From the NCBI GenBank assembly GCA_025370055.1, contig CP073041.1, positions 4,308,272-4,372,271 of the forward strand: 64,000 nt of DNA, given 5' to 3'. This stretch comes from Woronichinia naegeliana WA131. GTDB lineage: Bacteria > Cyanobacteriota > Cyanobacteriia > Cyanobacteriales > Microcystaceae. The translations under genes and the position numbers were made by a program. Positions 3,801-29,606 of this stretch are shown here, in pieces. The notes below the pieces were generated by a model. The model searched no databases. It had not been told where the DNA came from and saw only the letters and a list, made by a program, of their open reading frames with translations. Position 1 is the stretch's first letter; every line of letters starts with the position of its first letter.

Positions 3801-6800
3801 TTCTGCTGAATTTGAGATATGGCAGCACTAGCTTTTTCCATTTCCCGTTCTAGTTCTCCCAGTTCCTTACCCATATAGTAGCCAAAGTAGCAGCATGAAT
3901 GTATTCCCCATGCAGCAAAATGCAAATCCCCTGTTTCTAGCCCGATTCTATATCCTTCTAAAAAAGGAGTGAGAGTTTCTCTGATATGCTCTTTCCAATG
4001 TCTGACAAAACAATTTACGATGAAGAAAGTACTCGGCTTAAGTTCTTTGGCATCAAATTTTTTGAGCAGCTTCAAAGTGAGTTGACCAACTTTATAACCA
4101 CCATCAAGATCTTCTACTACTCCACAGAGAACTATTCCATATAGAGCATAGGCCTTAGCCGACAAAATTGTATTACCATATTTAACCGATAAGCTGACCA
4201 TTTTCGACACAACCATTGTGAAGAGGGGAGGAGAGGTAACATAGCAACAGTGTATCATTTGAAACATGAAATCCATGACTGCCAGTTTTTCTGGATCTGT
4301 CATTTCAGGCAAATTGACTAAATCCTCTATATCTTTAATTCCCCTCTTACCTAAAGCCGATTTAACTTCTTCAAGACTCTTTTCAACATCCAATTGGCTG
4401 GGTAGTTTTGGAAAAACTACGCCCATCATTTCCAGAATTGACAGCGCGATCTTCACTGCTTCGACTAGCTTATTCTGCGAGGCATTAGCTTGGATTTTCA
4501 GAGTATAAACTTTCGCTTTATCCAGCAATGTGTTTGCTTTTTGCAATACGACCTCAATTAACCGTTCCATCTGCTCCAGATCACCAATGAGGAACTTTGT
4601 TTCTGCCGCTTCTATATACAGTTTTAGTGTTAAATCATACTGCCTCTGCCAGTAGTCCTCCCCTAATAGGCTCAATCCAACCTGAAAGTAATTGAATGCT
4701 GGTTGATAAGCTGCTGATTTCTTGGCTTTTTTACCAACTATTAGATTTAATCTAGCTAGTTCATCTCGCTCTTCCTGTCGATTAATTAACTGCCTACCCA
4801 AGTTTAATTGGTTGACAATCTCAAAGATTTTAGAATCTTCTTTTTCTAAAGAAATGCCATGCAACAGCAGTTGACCTATATGCAGATGAACAGCTTGTTT
4901 ATCCGCTTCGGGAATTAGGGAATAGACTGCCTGGTGGATTCGGTCATGGGAAAACTTATATTCAACAGTGACTGTCTCTGCCAAACCCTGTACATCAGAT
5001 TCTGTTAGCTTGTAAGCATCACTAAGAGGTAAAACTAAACCATTGAAAAGTGCTGGCAACAGATCTGTTGCGGTTTTTTTGGGCGATTGTTTATATACAG
5101 TTGCCAAAGTCTGGAGATCAAATTGGTTACCAATAGAGGCTGCCAACTTTAATACCTGTTGTGTTGCCACCCCCAACTTTTGCACCTTAATGGCCATTAG
5201 TTCGACCACATTATCGGTTATAGCTTGAGCTTGAATTTCCCTTAAATCCCACTGCCAATGGTTAAGCTGATAGTCAAATGTTAACAGTTCTTCGCTATAC
5301 AGTGCTTTTAAAAACTCATTTATAAAGAAAGGATTGCCATTAGTTTTGGTTAGCACTAATTCTGCCAGTGGTCTAGCAGTCTCTACTGCAACATTGAGAG
5401 TCATACTAATTAACTGATTTACCTCGATCAATTTTAAAGGCTGCAAGGTGATGTAACTGACAAGATCTTCAGTTTTACTAATCTCATCCAAAGTAAGCAT
5501 TAAGGGATGAGCCTGAGTGACCTCATTATTTCGATAGGCACCAATAATGTATAAATAATAGCTTTCAGTTGGTGTCATTAGTAGTTGAATGAGTTTCAAG
5601 GAAGCTTCATCAGCCCATTGTAAATCGTCTAGAAATAACACTAATGGATGTTCAGGCTGGGCAAATACCTGGATAAAGTTTTTAAATACCAAGTTGAAGC
5701 GATTTTGGGCTTCCATTGAAGCTAGTTCTGCTACAGTGGATTGGGAACCAATAATCAGTTCTACTTCGGGAATTATATCAATAATTATCTGACCATTATT
5801 TCCCAGAGCAGCTAATAATTTTTGTCGCCAAGCAGATATCTGGACTTCGTTTTCCGTCAAGAGTTGCTCTATTAAGAAGCGAAAGGCTTGTACTAGGGAC
5901 GAATAAGGAATATCTCTTTGAAATTGGTCGAATTTCCCAGAGATAAAGTACCCCTGCTGCCGAGTAATTGGCCTATAGACTTCCCTTACTAAAACCGACT
6001 TACCAATGCCGGAATAACCTCTTACCAGCATCATTTCCTTTCCCCCTTGGCTGACTCGTTCAAAGCCAGCCAACAATTGCTCAATTTCCTGTTGTCGCCC
6101 ATATAATCTCTGAGAAATTTGGAATCTATCCGAAATATCCTGCTGTCCTAGAAGAAAGGGATTAAGGCATCTCGTTTGCTCCCATTGTCTGTGACATTCC
6201 TCTAAATCCATCTTGAGACCGTAGGCTGATTGGTAACGATCTTCAGCGTTTTTAGCCATCAGCTTCATGACAATCTCCGATAGAATGTGAGGAATCTCTG
6301 GCACGAGTGCGTGAGGAAAGTTGGGTTGTTTAGCGATATGGGAGTGAACCAACTCCATTTCCTCAGTAGTTTCAAAAGGCAATCGATTAGTTAATAGCTC
6401 ATAAAAAGTTACCCCCAAAGAATAAAAGTCAGTGCGATAATCAATGTCTCGATTCATGCGCCCAGTTTGTTCTGGCGAAATGTAGGCTAATGTACCTTCT
6501 AACTGATTCGGGTTGCCTAAGGTGGTTTTTTCTCGTGAGAGTACGGTTGAAATGCCAAAGTCAATGAGTTTGATCTGACCTGTTGTGGGGTTTAAAACTA
6601 TGTTGGATGGGTTAATATCTTTGTGGATTATTAGACACTGATGGACCTGAATTAGAATCTCAACAATTTGTCTGGTAATGGTTAGAAACTCAGCCAAAGT
6701 GAATTGTCTGCCTTTCTGCATTAATCGTTCTAGAGATTCAGCGCCAAAATCCTCCATGACTATTAGCCAACAGTTTTGTTCATTTTCCAAGTTATAGGCA

Positions 6801-7033
6801 TTTACTACGCCCCTAAGTTGAAGGTTTTTGGTGATTGTATACTCTCGTTTGAACCAGGCTATTTTTTCTGGAGGTGGATAGGCTTGCTTTAGGGTTTTGA
6901 GTATAACTGTTTGGCTATCTCCTACCCGATGTCCGCGATAAACCAGCGAGTTGGTACTTTCATAAAGTTTTTCAATAATCTGATAGCCGGAAATAATTGC
7001 CATAATTATTATTGCTTTTGCTATAGATCTCAA
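827..7033 (-). CDS. Giant (2068 aa) multidomain signalling protein. N-terminal Ser/Thr protein kinase, then AAA/STAND-type NTPase (P-loop GYSGIGKS), TPR-like helical repeats, GAF, PAS, coiled coil, and a C-terminal 'AAA-like' ATPase domain (P-loop [10 protein letters not shown]).
   Basis: Kinase motifs [11 protein letters not shown] and DFG..APE-like (AYISPEQ); Walker A GYSGIGKS; TPR-like region; GAF/PAS-like segments; coiled coil [29 protein letters not shown]; C-terminal domain [23 protein letters not shown] resembling the AAA-like domain of the protein at 13805-15121. Confidence 0.8.
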
Positions 7034-7205: not shown

Positions 7206-8015
7206 TTACACACTTTGTTCCTCTGCTCTACAACTGACTACCAATGCTCGACGTTGTTGGACTGTCTTATTTGGGCGGGAATAATGTAATGTGTGGCAGT
7301 GGTGAACAGTTGCTCCTCCAGGTGCTAAGGGGCAAACAACTGCTTGAGAGTATTGTACTCCGTCTGCTATCAAACCTGAGCCTGTCCTATCTCCTTCATA
7401 GGGACGATGCGGTATAATGCCTCCAAGATGAGAACCAGGGATGAAATGCAAACAGCCGTTCTCGGGGGTGGCAGGGTCTAAAGGCATCCAAATTTTGAGG
7501 AGATCAAGCGAGCCAGGATAGGCAGCATCTTGGTGCCAGGGCATCTCAGCACCAAAGTGTGCTGGCTTTAGGTACAGACGCACTCTGCCGATGACCTTTG
7601 TTTCCTCGACATTGAGAAGGTGTGCCACAATCTTAAGGGTATTGCGGAAGTAGATCGTATCTATCAGTTGGGGAAAGACTAACTCTGGAGATGGTATCCA
7701 CACCAAGATTTCTCTCCCACCAGCAAGAGGTAGCTGTTGTTGATCTGCAAGTAGAGCTATCTTTTCTGGGCAGTATACTTTCATCTCTTCTATGATGCGA
7801 TCGTAGATTCCCTTCAGCCACTCAATTTCTTGGTCAGTAGTAATACGGTCGAAAATCAGGAATCCTTGTTTTTTAAAGACGGTAACTTGCTCATCTTTCA
7901 GATTTAAATTCAATTTATCTTTCATAACTTGGTGACAAGATAACAGATGTTGTAGAGGTTTAGCAATGCCAAACCCCTGCAATAATGTAACATAAAATAC
8001 ATTTTCCCATGACAT
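7206..8015 (-). CDS. Phytanoyl-CoA dioxygenase (PhyH) family Fe(II)/2-oxoglutarate-dependent oxygenase
   Basis: 269 aa. HxD...H facial triad context WHQDAAY ... HFIPGSHLGG ... HHCHTLH and overall PhyH-like layout. Lies 46 bp downstream of, and co-oriented with, the NHLP precursor gene. Confidence 0.7.
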   Translation of the reverse strand: MSWENVFYVTLLQGFGIAKPLQHLLSCHQVMKDKLNLNLKDEQVTVFKKQGFLIFDRITTDQEIEWLKGIYDRIIEEMKVYCPEKIALLADQQQLPLAGGREILVWIPSPELVFPQLIDTIYFRNTLKIVAHLLNVEETKVIGRVRLYLKPAHFGAEMPWHQDAAYPGSLDLLKIWMPLDPATPENGCLHFIPGSHLGGIIPHRPYEGDRTGSGLIADGVQYSQAVVCPLAPGGATVHHCHTLHYSRPNKTVQQRRALVVSCRAEEQSV

Positions 8016-8060
8016 CGGGAGAGCTAGATTTTCCCTAAGGTTCTGTTAAAAGAATTGGGG

Positions 8061-8369
8061 TCAAATGCAACAAAGTTGCATTATCCCAAAAATACCCGGG
8101 TTCTCCGAAAGAAACTGTTCAAGCTCCTTTAGAGTTAAGCTTCCCAAACCTTCTGGTAAATCGGGTATGGCAAAAAATCCACCAGCACCACTACCAAGGT
8201 CACTTATATCACCTAGTTCTGGGGGCTTTTCCGCTTGTAGCCTTTCAATCTCTGTTTTAGGATCTTGCCGCAAATTGGCCAAAATGCTTGGGTTACTCCA
8301 AGCATTAGCAATTAGTCTAGCCCATTGTTCTTGTTCGTTCATATTTTTTTTAAGTGGGAAATGAAACAA
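8061..8369 (-). CDS. NHLP (nitrile-hydratase-leader-peptide)-type RiPP precursor peptide. The likely true start is the internal ATG giving MNEQEQWARLIANAW... (about 8342). The leader ends in a double glycine (SGAGG) and the predicted core is FFAIPDLPEGLGSLTLKELEQFLSENPGIFGIMQLCCI.
   Basis: The leader ARLIANAWSNPSILANLRQDPKTEIERL matches the conserved NHLP leader pattern (..AKAWEDPAFKQ.LL.NPKAAIE..), followed by a GG motif. It is divergent from the YcaO/dehydrogenase operon and directly upstream of the PhyH gene. The ORF-track start is a TTG. Confidence 0.65.
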   Translation of the reverse strand: MFHFPLKKNMNEQEQWARLIANAWSNPSILANLRQDPKTEIERLQAEKPPELGDISDLGSGAGGFFAIPDLPEGLGSLTLKELEQFLSENPGIFGIMQLCCI

Positions 8370-8483
8370 TTTATGCTCTCTGCAGCGTCTTATGGTATCA
8401 TTCTAACTGGGTTTCATGTCAAGTAAGTTTCGTACTGGGTATGAGGGGTTTAGAGAACATCGTCTTGTAAAGAAACATTACTT

Positions 8484-10324
8484 GTGGTGTGGAGTCACTA
8501 TGAAGAGCCAATATTGTGGAGGAAAATTATGCTAAGTAACACTAATCAAGATGCAAACAATAATTATGACGAAGCTTACAATTTTTTAGAACGATCAGAA
8601 ATAGACCCCGATCAACCAGACATTCGTTTCAGACTAGAGGATATACAAGGCAATATTCTTAAAAGTCACGGGAGAACTTATTCTATTTATGTTTTCTTAC
8701 ACTTTGACAACAGTCAACCAGAAGCTACTAAGAAATGGATTGGGGATTTTGCTGAAAAGTATGTTGTATCTGCCATTAGGCAACGAGAACAAACCCAAGA
8801 ACATAAAAAATTCCTTAAAACAAAGAAGGAAGCTTCGTCTTCAACCTTATTTGTTAATTTTTCTTTATCATTTAAAGGGTATGAAGCATTAGGATTAGAT
8901 GCTAAGACTAATTTCCGAAAACTTTATCAGCAAAAACTACAAGATAAAGAACGTTCTTTTTCTACACATCCTTTCGAGGAGGGAATGCTCGAAAACCTAG
9001 AGAGTCTCAAGGACAAGAAAAGAGATTGGGAGATTGAGTATCAACAAGTTGAGTCCAGTGTAATGAACAACGATATTCATGCTTTAATCTTACTGGCTGA
9101 TTGCGATATCGATAATTTATGTGAAAAAACACAACAAATATTAGATAATATTGAAGCGAACAACATTAGAATTATTAAGAAAGAAATTGGTTGGGTACGT
9201 AAGAACGATCAAGATCAGTGTATAGAACCATTTGGGTTTGCAGATAATATCAGTAATCCTTTATTTCTGAAATCAGATATTTACCAAGTAACAGATAAAG
9301 ACCAATGGGACCCAAGTGCTAACTTGCGCTTGGTGCTTAATGTCGATCCTTTTGGCAATCTCCAGAATAAGGGTTATAGCTATGGAAGTTTTTTAGTTTA
9401 TCGAAAGCTGGAACAAAATGTAGAGGGTTTCAATGAAAAAATCAAAGAGTTAGCTGGTAAGTTAGAAAATCTAGGAGCCGATTCCCATCCAAAAAAGAAA
9501 CAGAACAACTCGTTAAAGCTTATACTATGGGGCGTTTCCAAAATGGACGGCCTGTTATGATTTATAGTAGCCCAGATTCTCTAGAACAAAGTGGAGTAGA
9601 TTTAAATAATTTTAACTATGGAAAGGGAAATGATTTTAAAGAAACATCTCGATGGAAATGCCCATTTCACGCTCACATTAGGAAGATGAATTCGCGGGCA
9701 ATAAGTGATAATGTACATAGTGGTACTTATAAAGATAAACCAGATAACCAACGTCAGAGAAGAATTGTTCGGCGAGGAACAACCTACGGTTTACCCAAAG
9801 AAAATCAAACTTCACTCTTGTCACAAACAACGAAAGAAAACTTACGGCACTACAAAAGCCTCTCAGAAAAACTGGGAGTCAAAACAGAAGTGGGTAAGGA
9901 AGGATTGCTATTTTTTTGTTTCCAAAGTGATATTCACGCCCAATTTGAGAAGCTTCAAGACTACGCTAATGATAACAATTTTGGGACAAATCCATTCGGA
10001 AAACTAGGCGCAGATCCTATTTTGGGACAGCAAAAGACACTGTTAATTCAACAGGTGACAGATAGGATATTAAAAATACCGTTAATTCATCGGGTGACAA
10101 ATAGTATATTAAAGACACCGTTAATTCAATGGGGGAGAGAAAAATTGCCGCCAATGCTAAAAGAAGCGTTTGGCAAATGGCCAAGTCAGACATGGCCAAG
10201 AACGTGGGGAAATTCACAAGACCCAGTTAAGGATTTCGATTTTTTTGGGTATGTGACTCCTAGAGGAGGTGAATATTTCTTTACACCCAGTCTAAGTTTC
10301 CTGAAATCCCTAAAAGAAGAATGA
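8484..10324 (+). CDS. DyP-type haem peroxidase split over two overlapping ORFs (8484-9560 and 9527-10324), implying a frameshift near 9490-9530. The likely start is the ATG at 8529, preceded by GGAGG.
   Basis: ORF1 contains a GXXDG-type motif (EPFGFADNISNP, distal Asp). ORF2 contains FHAHIRKMNSR (candidate proximal His and distal Arg) and RRGTTYGLP. The two ORFs change frame around the A6GA3 run at 9491-9500, and the ORF2 frame is open upstream back to 9461. Confidence 0.5.
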
Positions 10325-12582
10325 GTCAGATAACTGCTTATCGTCCCAAATTGAAATCCTGCTTTCGTTGTGAAATTATTCCCTCGGAAGGGGTTTTGCT
10401 GCTATCTGAAAACCAATCTATTATTCTTCCTAATCCTGCCTTCATTAAGTTAGTTCAACTTCTCGATGGCCAGCACACCCTAGAAGAGATTATTAAGCAA
10501 CTTCAGCAAAAAATGCCTTCCGCAGAAGTTCTATCCCTGCTGATGCAAATTAAGAACTATACAGTTGATGCTACTCCTTCTATACCCTCAGAACAAGCTG
10601 CTTTTTGGGAAATGCTTGGCATTCAACCAGAAGTAGCTTACCAACGGTTGCAAACCACCTCCGTGACAGTAACAACCTTTGGCAATATTGATCCAACTTC
10701 CTTCGAGACCATGCTAACTTCCGTGGGGGTACAAGTCAGGGATGGAGAAGAGCGGTCAATCGTTCTCACTGATGATTACCTGCAACCAGGGCTAGAAGCT
10801 TTTAATCAGCAAGCTTTGTCCGAAAATCGTTCTTGGCTGTTAGTCAAACCTATGGGGACAGAGATTTGGTTAGGCCCCTTGTTTATTCCAGATAAAACAG
10901 GGTGTTGGGAGTGTCTCGGACAACGACTACAGGGTAAGCGAAAGGTCCAAACCTATCTCCAGCATAAACAAAAGACGAATCACCCTTTCTCTTCATCCTT
11001 AGCTGTTTTACCCTCTACTTACCAAACAGCCCTCAGTTTAGCCGCCACCGAAACTGTTAAATGGATAGTAAGTGAAGCAAATGAAAGTATTGAAGGTAAC
11101 ATCATTACCCTCAATACTTTAACTCTCGAAAAAAACAACCATCCCCTGATTCGTCGTCCTCAATGCCCAACTTGTGGAAATCCCAACTTGATGGCTCAAA
11201 AACAATCAATAATACCAGTTTTACAAAGTCGCCAAAAGAATTTCACCAGTGATGGCGGGCATCGCAGTATTGCACCAGAGGAAACTTTTAGGAGATTGCA
11301 ACCTTATATTAGTCCAATTACAGGAATAATAAGCCTTCTGGGACAACCTCAAGGTTGGGAACACCAGCAGCAATTCACGCCTGCTTACATTAGTCAGGGC
11401 ATTTTCTTAGAGTATAACCAAGACTTAGAATCTCTACGCCGCAGTCTGAATCGATGTGCTAGTGGTAAGGGAAAAAGTGATATCCAAGCCAGAGTTAGTG
11501 CCATTGGGGAGGCGATGGAGCATTATTCAGGAGTTTTTCATGGGGATGAATACCGCGTTCGAGACCGCCTGAAAAATCTCAGTAACCCAATTCATCCGAA
11601 CGCCTGTATGTTGTTTAGCGATCGCCAAATCCAAAATCGGCATCTAGAAACTTCCAACCCGTCTCGTCTCAACTGGATTCCCGAACCCTTTGATGAAGAA
11701 CAGCAAATTGATTGGAGTCTAGTTTGGTCTTTGACTGATAATGAGCCTCGATACCTTCCTACTGCTTATTGTTACTACGGCTATGCTCAACAGCATCACA
11801 TCAAGTTTACTAGGGCTGACTCCAATGGCTGTGCTGCGGGTAACACCATGGAAGAGGCGATTTTACAAGGCTTTATGGAGTTAGTCGAGCGGGATAGCGT
11901 AGCTTTGTGGTGGTACAACCGTTTGCGAAAACCAGCAGTGAATCTTGCCGATTTTAATGAACCATACTTCCAAGAATTGCTGAGATTCTATCAGCAACAC
12001 CACCGCGATCTCTGGGTATTGGATATTACCAGCGATTTTAACATTCCTACCTTTGCTGCCATTTCTCGACGAAATGACCAAGCTGTTGAAAATATTATTC
12101 TCGGTTTTGGAACCCATTTTGACCCACAAATTGCTATTCTTCGCGCCTTAACTGAACTCAATCAGTCACTCCCTGCTGTCTTGTCTAACAAGCCTGAACA
12201 CAGTCGTGCTTACCGAGATCATTATCCTGAAGCCCTAGAATGGTGGCAAACGGCAACTCTTGAAAATCAACCCTATTTAATCCCTGATGAAAGTACAACC
12301 TGTAAGGTTTCAGCAGACTATCATAACAACGGTTATGGTGACCTTTATACTGATGTAATGAGTTGTGTAAACCTGGCTCAATCCAAGGGATGGGAAACTC
12401 TAATTTTAGATCAGACTCGCCCTGATGTTGGATTGTCAGTTGTCAAAGTTATCGTCCCTGGGCTGCGACATTTTTGGCCTCGATTTGCCCCAGGACGGCT
12501 GTATGATATTCCCGTCCAAATGGGGTGGTTAACAACACCATTAACAGAGGAGCAATTAAATCCTCTACCTATTTTCTTTTAA
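10321..12582 (+). CDS. Fused E1-like/YcaO cyclodehydratase (PatD/TruD-like azoline synthetase) with an N-terminal RRE (PqqD-like) leader-binding domain
   Basis: 753 aa. N-terminal winged-helix RRE-like segment (LLLSENQSIILPNPAFIKLVQLLDGQHTLEEI). C-terminal YcaO hallmark (GCAAGNTMEEAILQGFMELVERDSVALWWYN) and proline-rich C-terminus. The start overlaps the upstream ORF by 4 nt. Confidence 0.8.
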   Translation: MSQITAYRPKLKSCFRCEIIPSEGVLLLSENQSIILPNPAFIKLVQLLDGQHTLEEIIKQLQQKMPSAEVLSLLMQIKNYTVDATPSIPSEQAAFWEMLGIQPEVAYQRLQTTSVTVTTFGNIDPTSFETMLTSVGVQVRDGEERSIVLTDDYLQPGLEAFNQQALSENRSWLLVKPMGTEIWLGPLFIPDKTGCWECLGQRLQGKRKVQTYLQHKQKTNHPFSSSLAVLPSTYQTALSLAATETVKWIVSEANESIEGNIITLNTLTLEKNNHPLIRRPQCPTCGNPNLMAQKQSIIPVLQSRQKNFTSDGGHRSIAPEETFRRLQPYISPITGIISLLGQPQGWEHQQQFTPAYISQGIFLEYNQDLESLRRSLNRCASGKGKSDIQARVSAIGEAMEHYSGVFHGDEYRVRDRLKNLSNPIHPNACMLFSDRQIQNRHLETSNPSRLNWIPEPFDEEQQIDWSLVWSLTDNEPRYLPTAYCYYGYAQQHHIKFTRADSNGCAAGNTMEEAILQGFMELVERDSVALWWYNRLRKPAVNLADFNEPYFQELLRFYQQHHRDLWVLDITSDFNIPTFAAISRRNDQAVENIILGFGTHFDPQIAILRALTELNQSLPAVLSNKPEHSRAYRDHYPEALEWWQTATLENQPYLIPDESTTCKVSADYHNNGYGDLYTDVMSCVNLAQSKGWETLILDQTRPDVGLSVVKVIVPGLRHFWPRFAPGRLYDIPVQMGWLTTPLTEEQLNPLPIFF

Positions 12583-12608
12583 GCGATTCGGCTACCTTGA
12601 ATTTTAAC

Positions 12609-13775
12609 ATGAGTGACTCATCAAGCAAGGAGCAGCATTTTGTTATCTCTACCTCAGAGAAAACTTGGGCTGAGATCGCTCCTTTTGGTACAAAACAAGT
12701 TGTCCCTTTTCCTCTAGAGTCGAACCAACTATATACGCTCTCACGTTTTGCCTACCTCCACAATCTTGACGGGAAAATGGTGCTGGAATCTCCCTTGGCT
12801 CATTGTCAAGTGATTCTGTATGATGAGCGATCGCTTGCCATTTTTCATGCTCTTTCTGCTCCTCAAACTCTGGCACAATTGGGTAATCAATTTTCAGATA
12901 TTCCCCAAGATATTATTGCAACCTTCCTAAGTTGGTTGCTAGGAGAGAAATTTTTAGCGGTTACTGATAAAGATGGAACGGTCAATGAGGAACCATCATT
13001 ACATCTGTGGGAACTTCACGACCTGTTGTTTCATGCCAGAAGTCGTTTAGGAAGGCATAATTATCCCTATGGGAAAAGCAATCTCCATTTAGGTAAAATC
13101 GAACCACTTCCTGCTGTGAAGTCGTCAAACTCATTTGCAACAATTACTCTATATCAGCCAAATATTGAAGCCTTGATGGATTGTGATATTCCCTTCACTC
13201 GTGTCATGGAACAAAGGCGATCGCAAAGGCAACAAGGTAAACAGCCAATTACTATTGAACAATTAGGTGAGTTTCTCTATCGTACTGCTCGTATTAGATC
13301 GCTCAAAATGACTGAATCTGTCGAGTATGAATTTAGCGATCGCCCCTATCCTAGTGGTGGTGCTTGTTATGAGTTGGAACTGTATTTGATAATCAATGCT
13401 TGTCAGGGAATAGAATCAGGACTCTACCATTACTGTCCCAAAGAACATTTTCTCTGTCAATTAAACGGTTACACGGGAGAAGTTTATAAACTTTCCTGTC
13501 AAGCAGTTACTGAATCAGGCTTACCTCAAGTCTTAATTATCCTAGCAGCCCGCTTTTCCAGAGTCGCTTGGAAATATCGCTCTCTTGCTTATTCCTTGAC
13601 ATTAAAACACGTCGGCGTTCTTTATCAAAGTATGTATCTAGTTGCAACAGCGATGGAGCTTGCCTCTTGCGCCATCGGAGGAGGAGATTCTGACCTGTTT
13701 GCCGAAGCAACTAAAACTGATTACTTGATTGAAACTTCCGTCGGTGAATTTATACTGGGTAGCCAAGCAGACTAG
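12609..13775 (+). CDS. SagB-type (McbC-like) FMN-dependent azoline dehydrogenase
   Basis: Nitroreductase-like motifs RRSQRQ and RPYPSGGACYELELYL. The ORF-track start at 12525 overlaps the YcaO gene; the ATG at 12609 (MSDSSSKEQHFV...) is the more plausible start. Confidence 0.75.
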   Translation: MSDSSSKEQHFVISTSEKTWAEIAPFGTKQVVPFPLESNQLYTLSRFAYLHNLDGKMVLESPLAHCQVILYDERSLAIFHALSAPQTLAQLGNQFSDIPQDIIATFLSWLLGEKFLAVTDKDGTVNEEPSLHLWELHDLLFHARSRLGRHNYPYGKSNLHLGKIEPLPAVKSSNSFATITLYQPNIEALMDCDIPFTRVMEQRRSQRQQGKQPITIEQLGEFLYRTARIRSLKMTESVEYEFSDRPYPSGGACYELELYLIINACQGIESGLYHYCPKEHFLCQLNGYTGEVYKLSCQAVTESGLPQVLIILAARFSRVAWKYRSLAYSLTLKHVGVLYQSMYLVATAMELASCAIGGGDSDLFAEATKTDYLIETSVGEFILGSQAD

Positions 13776-13804
13776 CAACCTCTCTTTACCGTGGAAATAT
13801 CAAT

Positions 13805-15121
13805 TTAGCGACTATTGAATCTTTCGGCAAAATACTGTCTATACAACTCACAACTCAAGATCACTTGATTTCCATACTGTTTAATTAGTCCCATGCTACT
13901 TAATTTATGGATCAGAATATTATCATCTAGAGAAATAGCTTCAGTCGCATCCATGACACGTTTAAGCGCAGTAGTTAATTTAGGTTGTTCTTGCAATGTG
14001 GCCCAATGTCGCTGCAAATAGTGAGTATAAATGCCAACATTTGTGGCCGCAGTTTCTAATAGTTGTTCTAGGGTCATTTCTCCCTGACCCAGGTGATAAA
14101 AGGCAATTTGTACCAATGCGGGATGACCATCTACCATCTCCATCAGTTGTTGACAATGTTCTCCTTGTCCACAGTCTAGTCCGTAGCATTGTGCTAATTT
14201 TTTAACCTCTTCTTGAGAAAAGTTACTTAACTGAATGGGCAATCCTATATTAAAGGGAGACTGATTAAGCTGAAGCGGAACGTAAATTTCTGTGGAGTGG
14301 ACGATGACTAGACGAAGTCTTTGCCAGAGGGGTGAGGTTTTGGCTTCTTCGTACCACGATCGCAGTAGAGGAAAAAAATCCTTTGCCACCTCAGAATGCT
14401 CAAAAAGCTGGTTTGCCTCATCTAAAGCCAAAACGAGAGGCGTTTGGATTGACTTTAATAGATAATCTTCAAAATAGGAAGTACAACTAATTTTGCTACC
14501 TAAGTCTTGATCCCAATATTCATCTAATCTAGGTTCTAAGTGAAGTTGACGGGCAACATTAGCACAAAGCCAGCGCAAAAATTGATTGAGGTTATTCAGG
14601 ATGGCTTGATCCGCTTGGTCTAAATTGAGGCTAACGGTCTGGTAGCCCTGGTTTTTTGCAAATTCCAAAAGTCTCAGTAATAGCGAGGTTTTACCCATTT
14701 CCTTTGGAGCTTTGATTCGCACGAGGGAACCTGGTTTCCTAATTTCTTGTTTACTTTGTTCTTCGACGGGAAAGCGTTCGAGATAAAAAGGGGAACCGAG
14801 GGGAACGGCTCCATTGGGGTAAAGCGGCTGGGGATTAGGATTAGTTTCTAAAAATTCAAGGTTTTCAGGGGTTTTAGGATTTGTCGGGGATGTTGTTTCA
14901 AAGTCCAGATTAGCTATTTCTTTCCATTCCAAGCCCAATTGCCGACAGAGTTCTTCAAAGGTGGTGAAGTCAACGGGTTTGCCTGTGAGAAAGTTACTGA
15001 CGGTAGCCAGGGCCAAACCAACCTCTTCCGCTAAGGCTCGTTGGCTGGGGAAGCCGTTGCGTTGGAGGGCTAGTTTGACGCGGCCTAGTTGGGCTGGTTG
15101 GACTCTCAGCGATCGGGGCAT
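13805..15121 (-). CDS. HTH-containing 'AAA-like domain' ATPase (N-terminal helix-turn-helix plus P-loop NTPase), a possible regulator
   Basis: The N-terminus (QRALAEEVGLALATVSNFLTGK) is HTH-like. Walker A KEMGKTSLLLRL. The overall domain is similar to the C-terminal domain of the giant kinase at 827-7033. Confidence 0.6.
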   Translation of the reverse strand: MPRSLRVQPAQLGRVKLALQRNGFPSQRALAEEVGLALATVSNFLTGKPVDFTTFEELCRQLGLEWKEIANLDFETTSPTNPKTPENLEFLETNPNPQPLYPNGAVPLGSPFYLERFPVEEQSKQEIRKPGSLVRIKAPKEMGKTSLLLRLLEFAKNQGYQTVSLNLDQADQAILNNLNQFLRWLCANVARQLHLEPRLDEYWDQDLGSKISCTSYFEDYLLKSIQTPLVLALDEANQLFEHSEVAKDFFPLLRSWYEEAKTSPLWQRLRLVIVHSTEIYVPLQLNQSPFNIGLPIQLSNFSQEEVKKLAQCYGLDCGQGEHCQQLMEMVDGHPALVQIAFYHLGQGEMTLEQLLETAATNVGIYTHYLQRHWATLQEQPKLTTALKRVMDATEAISLDDNILIHKLSSMGLIKQYGNQVILSCELYRQYFAERFNSR

Positions 15122-15303
15122 GGAGGGGCGGTTTTAAGTTTAATGGTCTTATTCTAAGGCAAAAGTCAGAACTCAGAACAAAAGTAGTCATAAGTCAGAA
15201 AGAAGTCAGGTGTTCTCAGGTTTGAAGTCAGATAATGGTGGAGTTTTATGGATATATCGAGAAGTTCTACTTTAAGCAATCAACCAATTACAGGGAGTAA
15301 ACG

Positions 15304-15921: not shown

Positions 15922-17916
15922 ATGAAAAAGTTAGTTCGTCCGTTTGCCCTTGGTTTAAGTATGATGGTTGGCTTCGGGGTCAACATTCCTGCTCTGAATG
16001 CAAAAACTCCATCTAAACCCAATCAGTCAGTAGCTAATCCTTGCGAAGAAGCTCAAAACGTGTGTGCTGCTGAATCCGTTCCACTTTATTACAATCGTTC
16101 AGCAGACGCAATTAAAACGATACTGGAAAAAATTGTTGGTGATGGTAAGACTGGCAAATTTGCGGGAACTTTTATCGGAGAAAATGGCACTGGCACTGGC
16201 GAAGCATCTGGTAATAACCATAATGTAATCGTCCTATATGGTACAGATGACAACCGAAAAAAACTCAAACGAATCATTGCAATTCTCGACCTTCCCCGTG
16301 AGCGCGTCAATATGGAGATGTGGGGAATACTAATCTCTAGTGACAATCCTCAGCAATTGGCTGAAGTCATGAATCGGGTTAACAAGGAAATTGATAAGAC
16401 TCAACAATTACTGCAAGAGACCTACAATCAAATTAAAGAATATTCCATCAATTATGCTCTTAAGGCAGAGAATAATCCTGATCTTAAAATAGAACCTGAT
16501 TTTAAGAATTTATTTACAGAGGTTCTTGGATATAAAACAGCATTTGATGAAGATTCTTCTTCTCTCTCTATGATAGATATTTTGCTAATCTTGTTAGCAA
16601 GAAATAAACCTAATATTGCATATAATAATGCAGCAAATGGTCTTTGTCAGATTTTCTTTAAAAAAGACGGCCAGCCTAAAGAAGATTTTCAACCCTATTT
16701 AGAGGCTTTAGCTAAAAATGAAAAAAAACGACCCTTTGAAAACTATATCCGTTTGGGTTTACATCAAGAGGATAAAGGATCAACCCCAGGGTGTAACAGT
16801 CTAAAAAATGCTGAGGATTTAGATCAAAGAAATTTTATTGCACGAAAAGCCGTTCTAAATTTTGCCTTACAATATTCTCGTCTCAAGAGAATACCAGCCG
16901 AAATTGATCCCGATGCTTTACAAGAATCTGCCGAAACATTGAACTCTGTTTTGGAACCTGTGGTTAATGCGCTTAACCGTGACATAGAAGATTTGTTCAT
17001 TCAACCGACTTTAGAAAGAATTCAACGCATCGTGAGCGAATATGATGATGTAAGCTATGCGGAAGTGGGCAAAACCAGTGTCGCAGGATTAAATGGTATT
17101 CATTCGGAAGTCTCTTCAACATCAGTCAGTACCTTTGATGAAACTGGCCCTTTAAGGCTTAGTCAATGGCTTGAGGATGCGGGCAAACTCAATAACAGTG
17201 TCTCAAGTTTATTACCAAAAGAGGTTGCGTTTGAAGGTAGTCCAATCCCTGTATCCTCTTTGATAAGTACGGTTGCTGCCCTGAGCGCGGATCACTCCCA
17301 ATGGCGAGGATTAACATCAGGGATTTCGATAACGATTACCCCTTCGGTGTTACGCAACAGCGAGTCGGCAGAACTGCAAATAGATTTTACCACTGGCCCA
17401 AAAGAGATCACTCAAGGAGAAGAGAGTAACAACGGACAAACGAAGCTACGTCCTTTATCCCGCATTGCCCAGAGTCATGTGAAAACAAGTGTTTATGTTA
17501 AAACCTTAGATTTATTTGCTCTTTCTACTTTCAATAATCAAACTACTGAAGATGGTGGACGAGGCTATATCCCTCTAATTGGCCCAATTTGGAAAGGATT
17601 TTTCAGTGGACTTCCAATTGTTGGCGATCTGTTCAGTTGGCAGAATGCACCCAACAATGTTCAGCATCAAAGTATTGCATTAGTTAACTCCTTTATTGTC
17701 CCTACTGCAATGGGATTAGCTCATTTATACAGCAACAGTAACAGTAACACAATTCCCTTTGAATATAAGTCTTCTGCCGTTGAAAGATATTTGGATTGTC
17801 TTAAGAAAAAGAATCAAGCAACTGTTGTTGATTCTCAGTGTTTTGTTACAAGCCCGCAACAACCATATCAATATCAGCAACTCCCACCTCAATATCAACC
17901 TGACTTTTCCCGTTAA
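15922..17916 (+). CDS. Divergent secretin-family outer-membrane protein (signal peptide, secretin-N-like module, C-terminal secretin motif). The last ~4 codons and the stop are supplied by the inserted IS.
   Basis: Signal peptide MKKLVRPFALGLSMMVGFGVNIPALNA. Secretin_N-like HNVIVLYGTDDNRKKLKRIIAILDLPRERVNMEMWGILISS. C-terminal IPLIGPIWKGFFSGLPIVGDLFS resembling the conserved secretin PxLGxIPxLGxLF motif. The reading frame continues across the IS as ...QYQQVPNTGVRP* at 21114+. Confidence 0.5.
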   Translation: MKKLVRPFALGLSMMVGFGVNIPALNAKTPSKPNQSVANPCEEAQNVCAAESVPLYYNRSADAIKTILEKIVGDGKTGKFAGTFIGENGTGTGEASGNNHNVIVLYGTDDNRKKLKRIIAILDLPRERVNMEMWGILISSDNPQQLAEVMNRVNKEIDKTQQLLQETYNQIKEYSINYALKAENNPDLKIEPDFKNLFTEVLGYKTAFDEDSSSLSMIDILLILLARNKPNIAYNNAANGLCQIFFKKDGQPKEDFQPYLEALAKNEKKRPFENYIRLGLHQEDKGSTPGCNSLKNAEDLDQRNFIARKAVLNFALQYSRLKRIPAEIDPDALQESAETLNSVLEPVVNALNRDIEDLFIQPTLERIQRIVSEYDDVSYAEVGKTSVAGLNGIHSEVSSTSVSTFDETGPLRLSQWLEDAGKLNNSVSSLLPKEVAFEGSPIPVSSLISTVAALSADHSQWRGLTSGISITITPSVLRNSESAELQIDFTTGPKEITQGEESNNGQTKLRPLSRIAQSHVKTSVYVKTLDLFALSTFNNQTTEDGGRGYIPLIGPIWKGFFSGLPIVGDLFSWQNAPNNVQHQSIALVNSFIVPTAMGLAHLYSNSNSNTIPFEYKSSAVERYLDCLKKKNQATVVDSQCFVTSPQQPYQYQQLPPQYQPDFSR

Positions 17917-20900
17917 GTGCGGATTGCAAGCTGCCAGCCTTGGCAAAGGTCATGCAACTTCAACCAACCGCGCCAAAGGACTTGGATACCGAGAGGAGTT
18001 TTACGACGATGTTCAAGATAACCACCAAGAAAAGCAACAGACTCGACAGCCCAAGCAACAGTCAAAATAGGGGGAAGTTTTTGAGAGGCGGCTGCTTTTA
18101 ACACCTGAAGTTGAAGAGGATTAAGAATTTCAATCGCGAGAGCATCGGGCTGGGTACGATGAAGATAAGTAACGTGTAAAAGTTCAACAGCAATGACACT
18201 TAAAAAACCCAAAAGAGTTTTCATTCCATCAGAGGCAAGTCGATAACGCTCACTCTGACAACCAGACTTAAGGACTTTATGAAATTCTTCAACCCGCCAT
18301 CGGTAGGTGTACCAACGAAGAATAGTGACAGCCATCTCAATAGTCTCAACAACTTCTGTAGTCAGAAGCATCCAAGATAAAGGAGTTTCGCCTTCGGGAC
18401 AATCGATTTCTGTCGCATAAACAGCATAGACATTCAACGGGTCACGATTATCAAAACGATAGGGAGTTCGTAGATTCTGACTTTTCCCGTTAAGTGCGGA
18501 TTGCAAGCTGCCAGCCTTGGCAAAGGTCATGCAACTTCAACCAACCGCGCCAAAGGACTTGGATACCGAGAGGAGTTTTACGACGATGTTCAAGATAACC
18601 ACCAAGAAAAGCAACAGACTCGACAGCCCAAGCAACAGTCAAAATAGGGGGAAGTTTTTGAGAGGCGGCTGCTTTTAACACCTGAAGTTGAAGAGGATTA
18701 AGAATTTCAATCGCGAGAGCATCGGGCTGGGTACGATGAAGATAAGTAACGTGTAAAAGTTCAACAGCAATGACACTTAAAAAACCCAAAAGAGTTTTCA
18801 TTCCATCAGAGGCAAGTCGATAACGCTCACTCTGACAACCAGACTTAAGGACTTTATGAAATTCTTCAACCCGCCATCGGTAGGTGTACCAACGAAGAAT
18901 AGTGACAGCCATCTCAATAGTCTCAACAACTTCTGTAGTCAGAAGCATCCAAGATAAAGGAGTTTCGCCTTCGGGACAATCGATTTCTGTCGCATAAACA
19001 GCATAGACATTCAACGGGTCACGATTATCAAAACGATAGGGAGTTCGTAGATTAACTGAGCAAAATCGGACGGCAAGCTTAACCTTCCGTGCTTTTCTTT
19101 TTCCTGTACTCGGAATCTCGATTTCTTGATGAAAACGAATCGGTTCTGATTCCAAATGTTGCCAAAGTCGTTCACTATTTTTGTCTAAACTACGATTATG
19201 AGACGCTCTGACCAGCACTCCTGTATGCTTGAGTTGACGCACTGAGTCAAAGACTTCTGAAACATCTCCTTCTCTGTCAAATACATGAATTACCCTCGTT
19301 GAACTTTCTACCTGTTTCTCACAGGTGTTTAGAGCCTCTACCCATTTGTAGGATTCTTTTTCCTCAAATGGTCTTTGACGAGCTGCTTTTCTTTGTTCTT
19401 TCTGTCTTTCTTTTTTCTGCTTCGCCGTTTCATCTGTTGGGGGCTTTTCTTTTACCTCCCTATTCCACAGTTTTTGCCATAATAAACCTAATACTTGTCC
19501 TTTTTCTGGCTCAATTGCTAAAGCACTATGCAGTATTAATCCATTCCCTCCTTTTCCAGTCGGCCCATACCCTTCCCTTTTTTCCTTGATATTGCGATAA
19601 TCTAAGAAGGTCGTATCTCCGACTGATAGCATTATCTTATATTCTTCTACGGCGGCAGTTGTCATTTCACAGTGCGGCTCTATTATCTTGACAAAGTCTG
19701 TTTTCGGATTCCCAAAAATTCATAGGCCCTCTTTAACTCGTTTCCTCCCTTAAACACTTCTGATAAGGCTTTTCCAAACCCCTCACTTAACTTTTTCCCA
19801 ATCGAGAAGGCACGATTGTTTAGCCTCTCGTCTCCCAATTCACAACTGGCAAAGTTTTTTGTCCACCATTCCAACATTTTTTGACCTGCCCTTTAAGATT
19901 TTCTCCATTTTACAGTCTCATACTCCCTTCATCCTTTGTTTTTGAAATTTGAACGATAAGCGGGATGATGGCTTCAGAATATTTTTTTCCTGTCAAGAGA
20001 ATCATTACTCAAACCCTTGCCAGATAAAGCCTCTAGAAGTTTGCATTGCTGGATTTTGGACTTAACGGGAAAAGTCAGTTCGTAGATTAACTGAGCAAAA
20101 TCGGACGGCAAGCTTAACCTTCCGTGCTTTTCTTTTTCCTGTACTCGGAATCTCGATTTCTTGATGAAAACGAATCGGTTCTGATTCCAAATGTTGCCAA
20201 AGTCGTTCACTATTTTTGTCTAAACTACGATTATGAGACGCTCTGACCAGCACTCCTGTATGCTTGAGTTGACGCACTGAGTCAAAGACTTCTGAAACAT
20301 CTCCTTCTCTGTCAAATACATGAATTACCCTCGTTGAACTTTCTACCTGTTTCTCACAGGTGTTTAGAGCCTCTACCCATTTGTAGGATTCTTTTTCCTC
20401 AAATGGTCTTTGACGAGCTGCTTTTCTTTGTTCTTTCTGTCTTTCTTTTTTCTGCTTCGCCGTTTCATCTGTTGGGGGCTTTTCTTTTACCTCCCTATTC
20501 CACAGTTTTTGCCATAATAAACCTAATACTTGTCCTTTTTCTGGCTCAATTGCTAAAGCACTATGCAGTATTAATCCATTCCCTCCTTTTCCAGTCGGCC
20601 CATACCCTTCCCTTTTTTCCTTGATATTGCGATAATCTAAGAAGGTCGTATCTCCGACTGATAGCATTATCTTATATTCTTCTACGGCGGCAGTTGTCAT
20701 TTCACAGTGCGGCTCTATTATCTTGACAAAGTCTGTTTTCGGATTCCCAAAAATTCATAGGCCCTCTTTAACTCGTTTCCTCCCTTAAACACTTCTGATA
20801 AGGCTTTTCCAAACCCCTCACTTAACTTTTTCCCAATCGAGAAGGCACGATTGTTTAGCCTCTCGTCTCCCAATTCACAACTGGCAAAGTTTTTTGTCCA

Positions 20901-21113
20901 CCATTCCAACATTTTTTGACCTGCCCTTTAAGATTTTCTCCATTTTACAGTCTCATACTCCCTTCATCCTTTGTTTTTGAAATTTGAACGATAAGCGGGA
21001 TGATGGCTTCAGAATATTTTTTTCCTGTCAAGAGAATCATTACTCAAACCCTTGCCAGATAAAGCCTCTAGAAGTTTGCATTGCTGGATTTTGGACTTAA
21101 CGGGAAAAGTCAG
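17900..21113 (-). mobile_element. Composite of two identical 1602-bp Tn5/IS4-family IS copies. The outer copy (17900-18476 plus 20079-21113) is interrupted by a complete inner copy (18477-20078) in the same orientation. Terminal IRs are CTGACTTTTCCCGTTAAGT. Outer TSD is CAATATCAAC (17890-17899 / 21114-21123) and inner TSD is TTCGTAGATT (18467-18476 / 20079-20088).
   Basis: Exact sequence identity between segments (identical ORF translations 18490-19665 vs 17913-18530 and 20062-20700; 19683-19877 vs 20718-20912). Inverted terminal repeats read directly. 577+1035 = 1602+10. Confidence 0.9.
18490..19877 (-). CDS. IS4/IS50-family DDE transposase of the inner IS copy, in two overlapping frames (N-part 19683-19877, main part 18490-19665). 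Either a frameshift or programmed frameshifting.
   Basis: The N-part LGDERLNNRAFSIGKKLSEGFGKALSE...AYEFLGIRKQTLS parallels the Tn5 Tnp N-terminus. The main part carries DTT..., VFDREGD and the YTYRWRVEEFHKVLKSGCQ (YREK) signature of IS4-family transposases. Confidence 0.85.
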
Positions 21114-21434
21114 CAATATCAACAAGTCCCCAATACAGGGGTACGACCCTAAAACAGAACTTTTTTTCAATGATCACAGGTTGGGCTAGATGACAGTATT
21201 TTAAATTTCTAAAAACTTTTTCTAGTCCGATTATTACTTCTAAAATAGGACAATATTATGAACAGAAAGACTCATAATTTAGCAGAAAATACTAGCTAAA
21301 TTATCGACTGGAAATTATCATTATTGAAGTCCAGTCAAAGTCAATTCTTATCTCGTTTGAAATATCTTCAATAGAGATGAGTTAACCACCATTTTCATCA
21401 ATGTAATTTATTTAACTTAGGAGAGAATGACAAA

Positions 21435-24182: not shown

Positions 24183-24455
24183 GTTATTCAAAGGCGATCG
24201 CATTCTCAAATTTACGTGGTGCGATCGCTTTTTGTGAGGATGAGATTGATGAGGCGATCGCTCTTTTTTTCTCATAGGGCGATCGCGTTTTATGTCCTGA
24301 ACTAACTTGCAAAGGGCTAGTTTAATGCGCTCTAGTTGGGGGGGATTCCCTGCTATCACTCTTTGAGTTTTTACGCGATCGCAACCCTTTTGCTAAAAAG
24401 TTACGGAAAATTGCGTTAAAATTGAGTGCTAATATCTAACTTGTGAGTAGTCTCT

Positions 24456-24758
24456 ATGGTAAATTTCTCCAAGCGATCAATCACCTCTCTCGAACTGCTC
24501 ATTTCTGAAATAGAAGCCACACCTAGAGAGTATTGGACAGAACTACTAGAAACCTTGCGCCAATTTCGGCAGACAATTCCGTTAACAAACTCACCCGTTA
24601 TTAACGCAGAACAAGCTCAAAAAAATCAAGCCGCGATTGATCTTTTAGACTCCTGGTTGAGTGAAGATGAAGATGCTTCAGAACATCAACAAACTTGGGA
24701 CTATTTAAAAAAGGTTATGGATGAAGACCGTTTATCAGATCGTCCTCTATTCCCATGA
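24456..24758 (+). CDS. Putative antitoxin (100 aa) of a type II TA pair
   Basis: Small acidic protein whose stop overlaps the start of the downstream PIN-like gene (ATGA overlap at 24755). Confidence 0.45.
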   Translation: MVNFSKRSITSLELLISEIEATPREYWTELLETLRQFRQTIPLTNSPVINAEQAQKNQAAIDLLDSWLSEDEDASEHQQTWDYLKKVMDEDRLSDRPLFP

Positions 24759-25207: not shown

Positions 25208-25414
25208 TTTTAAAGACGCGATCGCTTTTTAATATTTTTGCTCAGACTATCCGAAAAATGTTAGCTGGAAAATTTTTTCGTTGGAGAGCTAGTTTGACGC
25301 GGTTTAGTTGGGCTATTGGACTCTCAGCGATCGCTTATATTTCTCTCTATTAATCAAACTTTGGGAAGACGCGATCGCACAGGAGAAATTGTTATTCCGC
25401 CATCAGGATATGCT

Positions 25415-29550: not shown

Positions 29551-29606
29551 TAGGTAAGGATGTCACTTCAGCCAAACAAGAAGAAACTCCTCAAAAGAGT
29601 TCGTCA

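Follow-up and report, generated by a model that had tools for sequence, protein, structure and literature searches.

What does a cyanobacterium make from a small protein gene that lies beside cyanobactin-type azole-forming enzymes, a haem peroxidase and a giant kinase? We examined such a locus in Woronichinia naegeliana WA131, a 7.87-Mb metagenome-assembled genome (MAG), within a window of 64,000 nucleotides (nt) (assembly GCA_025370055.1, contig CP073041.1, positions 4,308,272 to 4,372,271 of the forward strand; coordinates below are window positions). A first-pass annotation of the window had proposed a locus for a peptide made on the ribosome and modified after translation (RiPP) at 7206-15121, and its open reading frames (ORFs) do exist at or near where it placed them. 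The comparisons below indicate that this is most likely a RiPP-type azole-forming locus, which would install two thiazoles on the invariant last residues of its precursor. The conserved unit appears to be a set of seven genes, including a giant kinase gene (827-7033) that the interval 7206-15121 leaves out.

Azole-forming enzymes and the precursor tail

The protein encoded at 10321-12582 matched the YcaO family (PF02624, E 1e-102) and exceeded the cutoffs of both TIGR03604 (278 bits vs 219) and the leader-binding model TIGR03882 (163 bits vs 37). An N-terminal winged helix-turn-helix (wHTH)/RRE domain (PF21084) was also present. The protein aligned end-to-end with LynD (E 3e-217; residues 12-752 vs 10-774), including the C-terminal NP.P motif, and the matches to LynD, MusD and TruD ranged from E 1e-204 to 1e-217. 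The product of the adjacent gene carried the ThcOx N-domain (PF22767, E 4e-28), PF00881 and the SagB model TIGR03605 (E 1e-50; 172 bits vs a cutoff of 78). Its closest solved structure is the cyanobactin oxidase CyaGox (5lq4, E 4e-67), and its start is probably at 12609, giving 388 amino acids (aa) as in its orthologues. Because the heterocyclase matches LynD, MusD and TruD and the oxidase matches CyaGox, the azole-forming pair belongs to the cyanobactin lineage. Homology shows the first to be a close relative of the cyanobactin heterocyclases, and the neighbouring flavoprotein to be a cyanobactin-type azoline oxidase. The earlier calls of a PatD/TruD-like fused E1/YcaO enzyme with an RRE and of a SagB-type dehydrogenase stand. 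In the WA131 records, the YcaO protein is UXE58652, a 'TOMM precursor leader peptide-binding protein' (TOMM, thiazole/oxazole-modified microcin), and two pieces of the peroxidase, KA717_21725 and KA717_21730, are hypothetical proteins. The features of the module are as follows.

827-7033, minus strand: giant signalling protein of ~2,060 aa, with Ser/Thr kinase, AAA_16 STAND-like NTPase, GAF, PAS and C-terminal AAA_35
7206-8015, minus strand: PhyH-family Fe(II)/2-oxoglutarate oxygenase (PF05721), probable start Met31 at 7925
8061-8342, minus strand: precursor, 93 aa, residues 1 to ~83 with a nitrile hydratase leader peptide (NHLP)/nitrile-hydratase-alpha-like fold; the ORF reaches a TTG at 8369
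8064-8093, minus strand: predicted core or tail IFGIMQLCCI, residues 84-93, with Cys91-Cys92 as the predicted heterocyclisation sites
8529-9497, plus strand: DyP-type haem peroxidase, N-terminal part, frame 0, open until the stop at 9560 (ORF 8484-9560)
9491-9497, plus strand: DyP frameshift site A_AAA_AAG, A6 here vs A7 in the intact allele
9497-10324, plus strand: DyP C-terminal part in the -1 frame, with proximal-His, distal-Arg and FQSD motifs (ORF 9527-10324)
10033-10129, plus strand: in-frame 39-bp tandem repeat of 2.5 copies within the DyP C-terminal domain (Tandem Repeats Finder score 138)
10321-12582, plus strand: fused RRE (wHTH), E1-like and YcaO cyclodehydratase of cyanobactin type (PF02624, TIGR03604, TIGR03882, PF21084)
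12609-13775, plus strand: flavin mononucleotide (FMN)-dependent azoline oxidase, a ThcOx/CyaGox-type SagB dehydrogenase (PF22767, PF00881, TIGR03605); the ORF opens at 12525
13805-15121, minus strand: HTH plus AAA_35 P-loop NTPase, putative regulator or sensor (PF14516, Cro/C1-type HTH)

The small ORF at 8061-8369 has the signature of a genuine coding gene. Its family comprised 10 clusters at the 90% identity level, with identities of 58-100%, and the dN/dS values of 0.18-0.34 at dS ~0.8-1.5 indicated purifying selection. Translation probably starts at the ATG at 8342, which gives the 93-aa form.

This ORF had been called an NHLP-type precursor, and profile and fold homology supported the call where the curated model failed. 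TIGR03793 gave no match to the window peptide even at E <= 10, so that its curated cutoff was not reached, and touched five of 13 family members (best E 0.0062). By the criterion set in the first-pass annotation itself, this formally counts against the call. The nitrile hydratase (NHase) alpha model TIGR01323 was matched weakly by all 13. Alone, the window peptide reached E ~0.03-0.08 against NHase alpha and TIGR04351. The family profile aligned with NHase alpha 1v29 (E 5.7e-4) over its positions 13-39 and 59-91, two segments in co-linear order, and with the solved NHLP leader MprE7 (8tb1, E 2.9e-3). In the predicted model, 73 of the 93 residues superposed on NHase alpha in the three-dimensional fold of NHLP proteins, and the homology and predicted fold extended to about residue 83-90. 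These profile matches and the predicted fold support membership of the NHLP clan, the NHLP/NHase-alpha fold taking up about 80% of the precursor. The precursor sequence contained no CxxCSC metal-site motif. We also considered the Cys-Cys tail as a homologue of this NHase site and rejected the idea: the NHase segments that align lie on either side of the site, and the tail comes after the last of the NHase-like segments.

In a classical NHLP pathway, a C39-peptidase ABC exporter encoded elsewhere would cut the peptide after Gly54-Gly55 and release a 38-aa hydrophobic, partly helical antibiotic carrying a bis-thiazole and a hydroxyl group. Such a leader ending in GG and a 38-aa, partly helical core had been proposed for this peptide. 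The sequence GAGG is present in it, a GG motif ends classical NHLP leaders (Haft 2010, as cited in a passage of PMC4603692), and the scanned window ORFs contain no exporter, so one could lie elsewhere. However, G54 varied among the relatives (GAGG, GPNG, TSG, SG), some of which have no GG at all, and no conserved GG junction was followed by a variable core. Residues 56-83 aligned with the C-terminal segment of NHase alpha (GYFxxPDLPEGL...LExFLxEN.G), which takes up most of the supposed core and is folded in the model. The same stretch holds L69-x4-L74, an L(X)4L element of the kind that docks to the RRE (PMC12455567). Conservation climbed toward the last 10 residues instead of giving way to a variable core. 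We regard a classical NHLP pathway as very unlikely here.

The C-terminal motif [IL]FGxM[QR]x[CS]C[IVA] was nearly invariant, and conservation within the peptide is highest over its last 10 residues. F85, G86, M88 and C92 were invariant and residue 91 was Cys or Ser in 13 sequences with identities down to 35%. The same held at positions 91 and 92 in every group A relative, in agreement with the earlier view of the C-terminal Cys-Cys as the modification target. The tail is disordered in the model (predicted local distance difference test (pLDDT) < 50 for residues 89-93) and ends at the protein C-terminus with no follower sequence. Because the NHase-like fold covers the rest of the protein, the GG is unconserved and the C-terminal element is nearly invariant, the true core appears to be the last 7-10 residues (at most 10), with two heterocyclisable positions.

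These observations suggest a pathway. The RRE of the heterocyclase would bind the folded leader through its alpha-1 helix (A12, W15) and the L69-x4-L74 strand. When the profile was aligned with 8tb1, the invariant W15 fell on the RRE-contacting Trp of MprE7 (W17); A12 is likewise invariant. Leader recognition of this alpha-1/L(X)4L type has been shown experimentally for MprE7/MprC (PMC12455567) and PatE/LynD. In MprE, L(X)4L (Leu70 and Leu75 of the 81-aa leader) extends the RRE sheet, and alpha-1 helix residues including Ala14 and Trp17 are needed for recognition (PMC12455567). The heterocyclase with ATP would then cyclodehydrate Cys91 and Cys92, and the oxidase would aromatise both rings to a C-terminal bis-thiazole (total -40.05 Da). 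The PhyH oxygenase (Fe/2-oxoglutarate) and the peroxidase (haem/H2O2), both apparently cytoplasmic, would then tailor the tail by further oxidation or trim it oxidatively. Control of the module, or a response to its product, would fall to the HTH-AAA_35 protein and the giant kinase. We assign a probability of roughly 0.6 to this model as a whole, that is, a leader-directed bis-thiazole on Cys91-Cys92, oxidative tailoring by PhyH and DyP, control or sensing by AAA_35 and the kinase, and a single product.

A recurrent module and its peroxidase

The precursor family is rare. We found four loci in 185,579 species-representative genomes, all in Chamaesiphon or Chroococcales MAGs, and 41 representatives at E <= 1e-3 in 1.84 billion proteins. 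The seven-gene set occurred in at least seven independent group A loci; it recurred in L007, L009/L010, L015/L016, L017, L018/L019 and L020 with differing gene order and strand and with unrelated flanks, and six of the seven genes were present in L021/L022, where DyP was not found. The identities to the window proteins moved together for the kinase (63-79%), YcaO (65-79%), the oxidase (64-75%), PhyH (54-79%), AAA_35 (62-69%) and DyP (40-60%). From this pattern, the locus appears to be a seven-gene module that is patchily distributed in cyanobacteria, with PhyH and DyP as conserved partners and not chance neighbours. The inclusion of both as cluster members, made at first on the window, is borne out by their recurrence across the related loci.

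The predicted PhyH-family oxygenase at 7206-8015 was confirmed over the whole PF05721 profile (E 6e-26), and its closest solved structure is EvdO2 (E 5e-43). An HxD motif (WHQD) and a distal His, with the downstream His-rich HHCHTLH, are visible in the sequence, consistent with a facial-triad fold. Since the orthologues have 235-242 aa, translation probably starts at Met31 (7925). PhyH occurred in eight of eight group A loci, at the identities given above.

The peroxidase had been placed at the head of the modification operon as one gene. Its identity and conservation were upheld; its integrity was not, as the reading frame breaks at 9491-9497. The N-terminal part matched DyP_N (PF21105, E 1.3e-8) and is identical to the corresponding part of the intact 598-aa protein P0017 from L015. 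The C-terminal part matched TIGR01413 (E 5e-14) and PF20628, and aligned with intact DyPs. The closest solved relative of an intact orthologue is Alr1585 (AnaPX) of Anabaena PCC 7120 (5c2i, E 7.5e-72), with which the module DyPs share the proximal His, distal Arg and Asp residues. The motifs FGFADN (Asp kept, Gly of GxxDG replaced by Asn), PFHAHIRK and RRIVRRG aligned with those of canonical DyPs, so that GxxDG reads FADN in the module. These features, together with the two-domain ferredoxin-like fold, point to a DyP-type peroxidase with predicted haem binding. The module DyPs constitute a distinct, longer subfamily (549-631 aa) with 36-42% identity to ordinary cyanobacterial DyPs (~470-490 aa). 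All nine subfamily members whose context we examined adjoin an NHLP-like precursor. The 39-bp repeat adds ~40 residues to the C-terminal domain, and was seen only in the Woronichinia alleles (window and L015) among the compared loci. It corresponds to a 41-residue insertion relative to the L024 DyP and to a smaller net gap in the L025 alignment.

Across the DyP gene, the window and L015 were identical at 1900 of 1900 aligned bases except for the run at 9491-9496, which is A6 in the window and A7 in L015, where the gene encodes the intact P0017. A sequencing or assembly error was rejected as the cause, since the same A6 run occurred in five independent assemblies; these are clonal and so uninformative on selection. 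Both the intact and the split allele are common in public metagenomes, and all A6 assemblies were 100% identical.

The deletion creates CC_A_AAA_AAG, a canonical -1 slippery heptamer (X_XXY_YYZ) in the zero frame, with AGGAG at 9473-9477, 13 nt on its 5' side. For dnaX-type -1 shifts, a spacing of 10-14 nt is reported to be stimulatory. A -1 slip at the heptamer would regenerate the exact L015 protein (...HPKKETEQL...), and more than one independent metagenome assembly carries the A6 allele, which was met in several. The break might therefore be a programmed ribosomal frameshift of the dnaX type that sets the ratio of truncated to full-length DyP. However, no significant downstream stimulatory RNA structure was detected at the site (z = 0.74), and the A6 assemblies represent one clone and not independent conservation. 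DyP is also encoded in a single frame with A7 in other lineages and in the sister strain, whose DNA is otherwise identical, so that the two-frame arrangement is not conserved. Given the lack of a downstream structure and the single frame elsewhere, a recent null or leaky allele is more likely than programmed frameshifting, which we consider improbable.

The frameshift might instead be a sign that the cluster is decaying in WA131 and that nothing is made. This explanation draws on the 1-nt deletion relative to a strain with otherwise identical DyP DNA, and on a transposon-rich surrounding, with IS4-like transposase copies bearing an internal 577-bp duplication 3 kb away. Related locus L017 has both its oxidase (14038-15193) and its giant kinase (16311-21767) in two pieces, with transposases nearby, which suggests that the module decays in some lineages. 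In WA131, however, the other six genes are intact and full length relative to their orthologues, and the DyP halves, otherwise undamaged, match the intact allele at 100% identity. A -1 slip on the A_AAA_AAG heptamer, at which the lesion lies, would give back the exact protein. DyP is also naturally absent from a related, otherwise complete module, so its loss need not abolish function; because L021 has no DyP at all, such loss may be tolerated. Taken together, a dead cluster in WA131 seems unlikely to us.

Signalling partners, sister modules and the fate of the product

The giant protein at 827-7033 contained Pkinase (2e-38), AAA_16 (6e-51), GAF (5e-13), PAS_4 (1.5e-8) and AAA_35 (7e-36) domains. 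An orthologue adjoined the module in every related locus with enough flanking sequence; the group A orthologues share 63-79% identity with the window protein, and those of a second variant of the module 44-47%. The HTH/AAA-like ATPase reported at 13805-15121 was recovered as PF14516 (E 2e-149) with a Cro/C1-type HTH, and GKTS and LALDE in its sequence read as Walker A and Walker B motifs, respectively. Orthologues were found in nine related loci at 57-69% identity, some with HTHs that Pfam labels HTH_VMAP-M9. That name probably comes from a conflict-systems paper (PMC7159879), whose main text is silent on VMAP-M9, YcaO, peroxidase and NHLP. A single-sequence AlphaFold2 model of the HTH-AAA_35 protein was unusable (pLDDT 37), a PDB sequence search with AAA_35 returned only HipB-like HTH and spurious P-loop matches, and nothing relevant on AAA_35/PF14516 was found in the literature searched. 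PADLOC, run on the module proteins, recognised a generic kinase domain only (PD-T4-6, mad6, Stk2), with no match for AAA_35, DyP, YcaO, PhyH or the oxidase.

The reported absence of a C39 exporter from the window held for the ten largest ORFs at 21-62 kb, which gave no ABC/C39 exporter or peptidase, while the smaller ORFs there were not scanned. The ten encode housekeeping or unrelated proteins such as GcvP, a PLP-dependent Orn/DAP/Arg-type decarboxylase, GatB and KaiC-like, SPFH and patatin-like proteins. In precomputed Pfam tables for ~10 related loci with differing flanks, no protease or exporter was linked to the module. An Rce1-like (CPBP/CAAX-type) intramembrane protease does occur in L021 (699-2162); it lies ~6 kb upstream of the module, which lacks DyP there and has a precursor ending in CCL. 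Unrelated genes lie between and the protease is not found in other loci, so its position is probably a coincidence. Given the invariance of the tail and the lack of any linked protease or exporter, the product is more likely one conserved entity that resembles a signal or cofactor than an antibiotic that diversifies.

These same observations give rise to the principal alternative, in which the product stays inside the cell. The modified tail on the folded 10-kDa protein, or an oxidatively trimmed bis-thiazole, would be a ligand or cofactor, following the logic of pyrroloquinoline quinone (PQQ) and mycofactocin. It would work together with the AAA_35 NTPases and the GAF/PAS kinase, or be detected by them, as part of a signalling or conflict module. 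Both the tail and the scaffold are strongly conserved, unlike the hypervariable NHLP and cyanobactin cores (PMC4603692), and release functions are not linked in the ~10 loci. Two AAA_35-containing proteins and the kinase are co-inherited in both module variants, the kinase bears ligand-binding GAF and PAS domains, and no signal peptide is visible in the DyP or PhyH sequence. All of this support is contextual, however, and azole-tailed proteins are not known to act as ligands of STAND-like NTPases. The similarity found by PADLOC is to a generic kinase only, and the conflict-systems paper (PMC7159879) makes no mention of YcaO, peroxidase or NHLP. AAA_35 and the kinase could also be plain transcriptional or post-translational regulators of an ordinary biosynthetic cluster. 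We consider an intracellular ligand possible, and less probable than the biosynthetic pathway set out above.

Sister groups of the precursor end in very short conserved tails with a final Ser or Thr (...FGI[MIL]Rx[ST] in group B; ...GIFLI[GA][ST] in group C, whose members are ~200-aa tandem doubles). Across the superfamily, the last or penultimate residue was Cys, Ser or Thr in 62 of 65 members. A scan of metagenomes for group B yielded only two loci. In L026 (group B), the order is DyP, precursor, fused YcaO, Amidohydro_2 and Pkinase-AAA_16-GAF-SpoIIE; in L028 (group C), it is HTH-AAA_35, DyP, precursor, fused YcaO, Amidohydro_2 and Pkinase-AAA_16-GAF-AAA_35. The short contigs L024 and L025 carry the precursor and DyP with a kinase or an AAA_35 gene. 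From those two contigs we had considered that YcaO occurs only with Cys tails and that DyP alone serves tails without Cys, a scheme rejected once the Ser/Thr-ending precursors of L026 and L028 were found to adjoin a fused YcaO.

The constant core of the superfamily thus appears to be precursor, DyP, fused YcaO and giant kinase, usually with HTH-AAA_35. The accessory set is ThcOx plus PhyH for Cys tails, or an amidohydrolase-fold enzyme for Ser/Thr-ending tails. The Amidohydro_2 proteins (L026 5960-7168; L028 12986-14083) were closest among solved structures to PtmU3 (E 5e-40), followed by ACMSD/LigW-type decarboxylases. We take PtmU3 to be a non-haem diiron monooxygenase; if this is correct, an oxygenase step may have been kept while a non-homologous enzyme took it over. 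In many relatives, two NHLP-like domains are fused in tandem to give a protein of ~200 aa (e.g., L028 10001-10591; proteins P0180-P0186, P0188, P0202, P0205, P0209 and P0216-P0232), an arrangement that recalls the fused NHLP-Burk precursors. In doubles with a CC tail, the first copy ends in ...FGxMMxGG, and CC[LR] ends the second copy only.

A broader interpretation, which we offer tentatively, is that these loci form an undescribed superfamily in which a folded NHLP-like protein receives a C-terminal azol(in)e cap from the fused YcaO and is then oxidised by a dedicated DyP, the capped protein or tail being the cognate ligand or substrate of the AAA_35 NTPases and the GAF/PAS kinase. RiPP-type modification would then serve intracellular signalling or conflict sensing and not an exported antibiotic, with the two accessory sets as alternative chemistries; we hold this part to be equally speculative.

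Several points weigh against the pathway proposed for the window. The precursor misses the curated NHLP hidden Markov model. Azole formation on the Cys-Cys tail is predicted from sequence, and the roles of PhyH, DyP, AAA_35 and the kinase are drawn from conserved linkage. DyP is frameshifted in WA131 and was not found in L021/L022, and is therefore not essential. Neither the scanned window ORFs nor the related loci provided a leader protease or exporter, which leaves peptide release putative. The YcaO enzyme might also form a thioamide or amidine, although this is less likely because the cognate azoline oxidase is present.

Relation to known pathways and biological meaning

The core chemistry has clear precedents. 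In a methanotroph, MprC (YcaO) and MprD (FMN oxidase) put thiazoles on NHLP-led MprE peptides (PMC12455567). The Mpr system (Nguyen et al. 2022; PMC12455567) shares with the window a folded NHLP leader bound by the RRE of the YcaO enzyme and an FMN oxidase that converts thiazoline to thiazole, and the window peptide has W15/A12 and L69-x4-L74 at positions equivalent to the MprE recognition elements. It differs in having ten precursors with variable cores that acquire 2-6 azolines after a GG-type junction, whereas the single precursor of the window offers two sites in an invariant tail no longer than 10 residues. Partners of the DyP, PhyH, AAA_35 and kinase kinds are not mentioned in that paper (PMC12455567).

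The passages of PMC11583998 that we searched describe nostatin A from Nostoc sp., made with an NHLP precursor (NstC), a YcaO enzyme (NstD) and an azoline oxidase (NstE). According to them, NstC has a 30-aa core rich in Cys, Ser and Thr, the product is a large secreted cytotoxin, and in the nst cluster these genes are joined by those for transporters, a methyltransferase, a PoyD-like epimerase and a LanM-like dehydratase. DyP, PhyH, AAA_35 and a kinase are not mentioned in these passages.

Cyanobactin pathways (PatD/LynD/TruD/MusD; ThcOx/CyaGox) supply the closest enzyme relatives of the window heterocyclase and oxidase. By contrast, the PatA/PatG protease/macrocyclase and the prenyltransferase have no counterpart in the module, the ten scanned window ORFs or the gene tables of the related loci. 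The PatE-type precursor with its recognition-sequence cassettes is not matched either, the window precursor being NHLP-like. In the analysis of Cox 2015, NHLP/Nif11 D proteins group with the cyanobactin heterocyclases and PatA/G are lacking (PMC4603692). The NHLP/Nif11 TOMM class shares with the window a nitrile-hydratase-like precursor devoid of the CxxCSC site and paired with a cyanobactin-like D protein (PMC4603692). Passages of the same paper give these TOMMs hypervariable cores, GG-type cleavage and dedicated exporters. The window family, in contrast, falls below the TIGR03793 cutoff and has an invariant micro-core, with no exporter linked in the related loci.

Mycofactocin and PQQ arise from small conserved precursors whose invariant C-terminal residues are redox-reworked to a single product. 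They are an analogy only, with no homology implied: radical SAM chemistry operates there, and YcaO, FMN, haem and Fe/2-oxoglutarate enzymes would operate here.

Given the Mpr, nostatin A and Cox et al. precedents, the core azole chemistry is of an already characterised kind. The first-pass annotation had called the gene combination undescribed. This held for the peroxidase, as no paper pairing YcaO or a RiPP with DyP was found in the literature searched, although an antiSMASH-level mention of the WA131 cluster may exist elsewhere; it failed for the set of NHLP, YcaO and oxidase, which had been characterised before. The novelty lies in the very short invariant tail, in the presence of DyP, in the co-inheritance of the kinase and AAA_35, and in the fact that about ten related loci have no protease or exporter linked to them.

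Around the module, counts from a promoter/terminator scan barely exceeded those in shuffled sequences, and the divergent intergenic region was uninformative. Just past the module, 15922-17916 encodes a 664-aa protein with weak similarity to a secretin N-domain and a type III/type II secretion system secretin C-terminal region. A 674-aa counterpart occupies the same position in L015; as nothing comparable was found in the other related loci, this protein is probably outside the module. An IS4-like transposase region at 17900-18776 (ORFs 17913-18530 and 18490-19665) contains a perfect tandem duplication, spaced by 577 bp, of the 3' part of the gene, which yields two ORFs with identical C-termini; the copies lie 3 kb from the module. 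Downstream, at 21435-34606, a run of large unexplained genes may form a separate membrane-associated or defence island; it comprises genes for a patatin-like protein (915 aa), an SPFH/Band_7 protein (851 aa) and a DUF4407 protein, and two tandem ORFs of 195 aa.

The azole core of this locus is ordinary; its DyP partnership, micro-core and obligate signalling partners are unusual. If the proposed pathway is correct, this would be the first RiPP-type pathway, within the literature searched, to recruit a DyP haem peroxidase. It would also provide an unusual case of an NHLP 'leader' that bears merely an invariant tail of 7-10 residues, and would point to one conserved product and not to a toxin that diversifies. 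As a ~2,000-aa kinase and AAA_35 are strictly co-inherited with it, the module would give a handle on the Pkinase-AAA_16-GAF giants and AAA_35 proteins, two cyanobacterial families that are very abundant and functionally opaque; ribosomal peptides may serve as ligands for some of these proteins. The host is among the common bloom-forming cyanobacteria, so that the product could matter ecologically.

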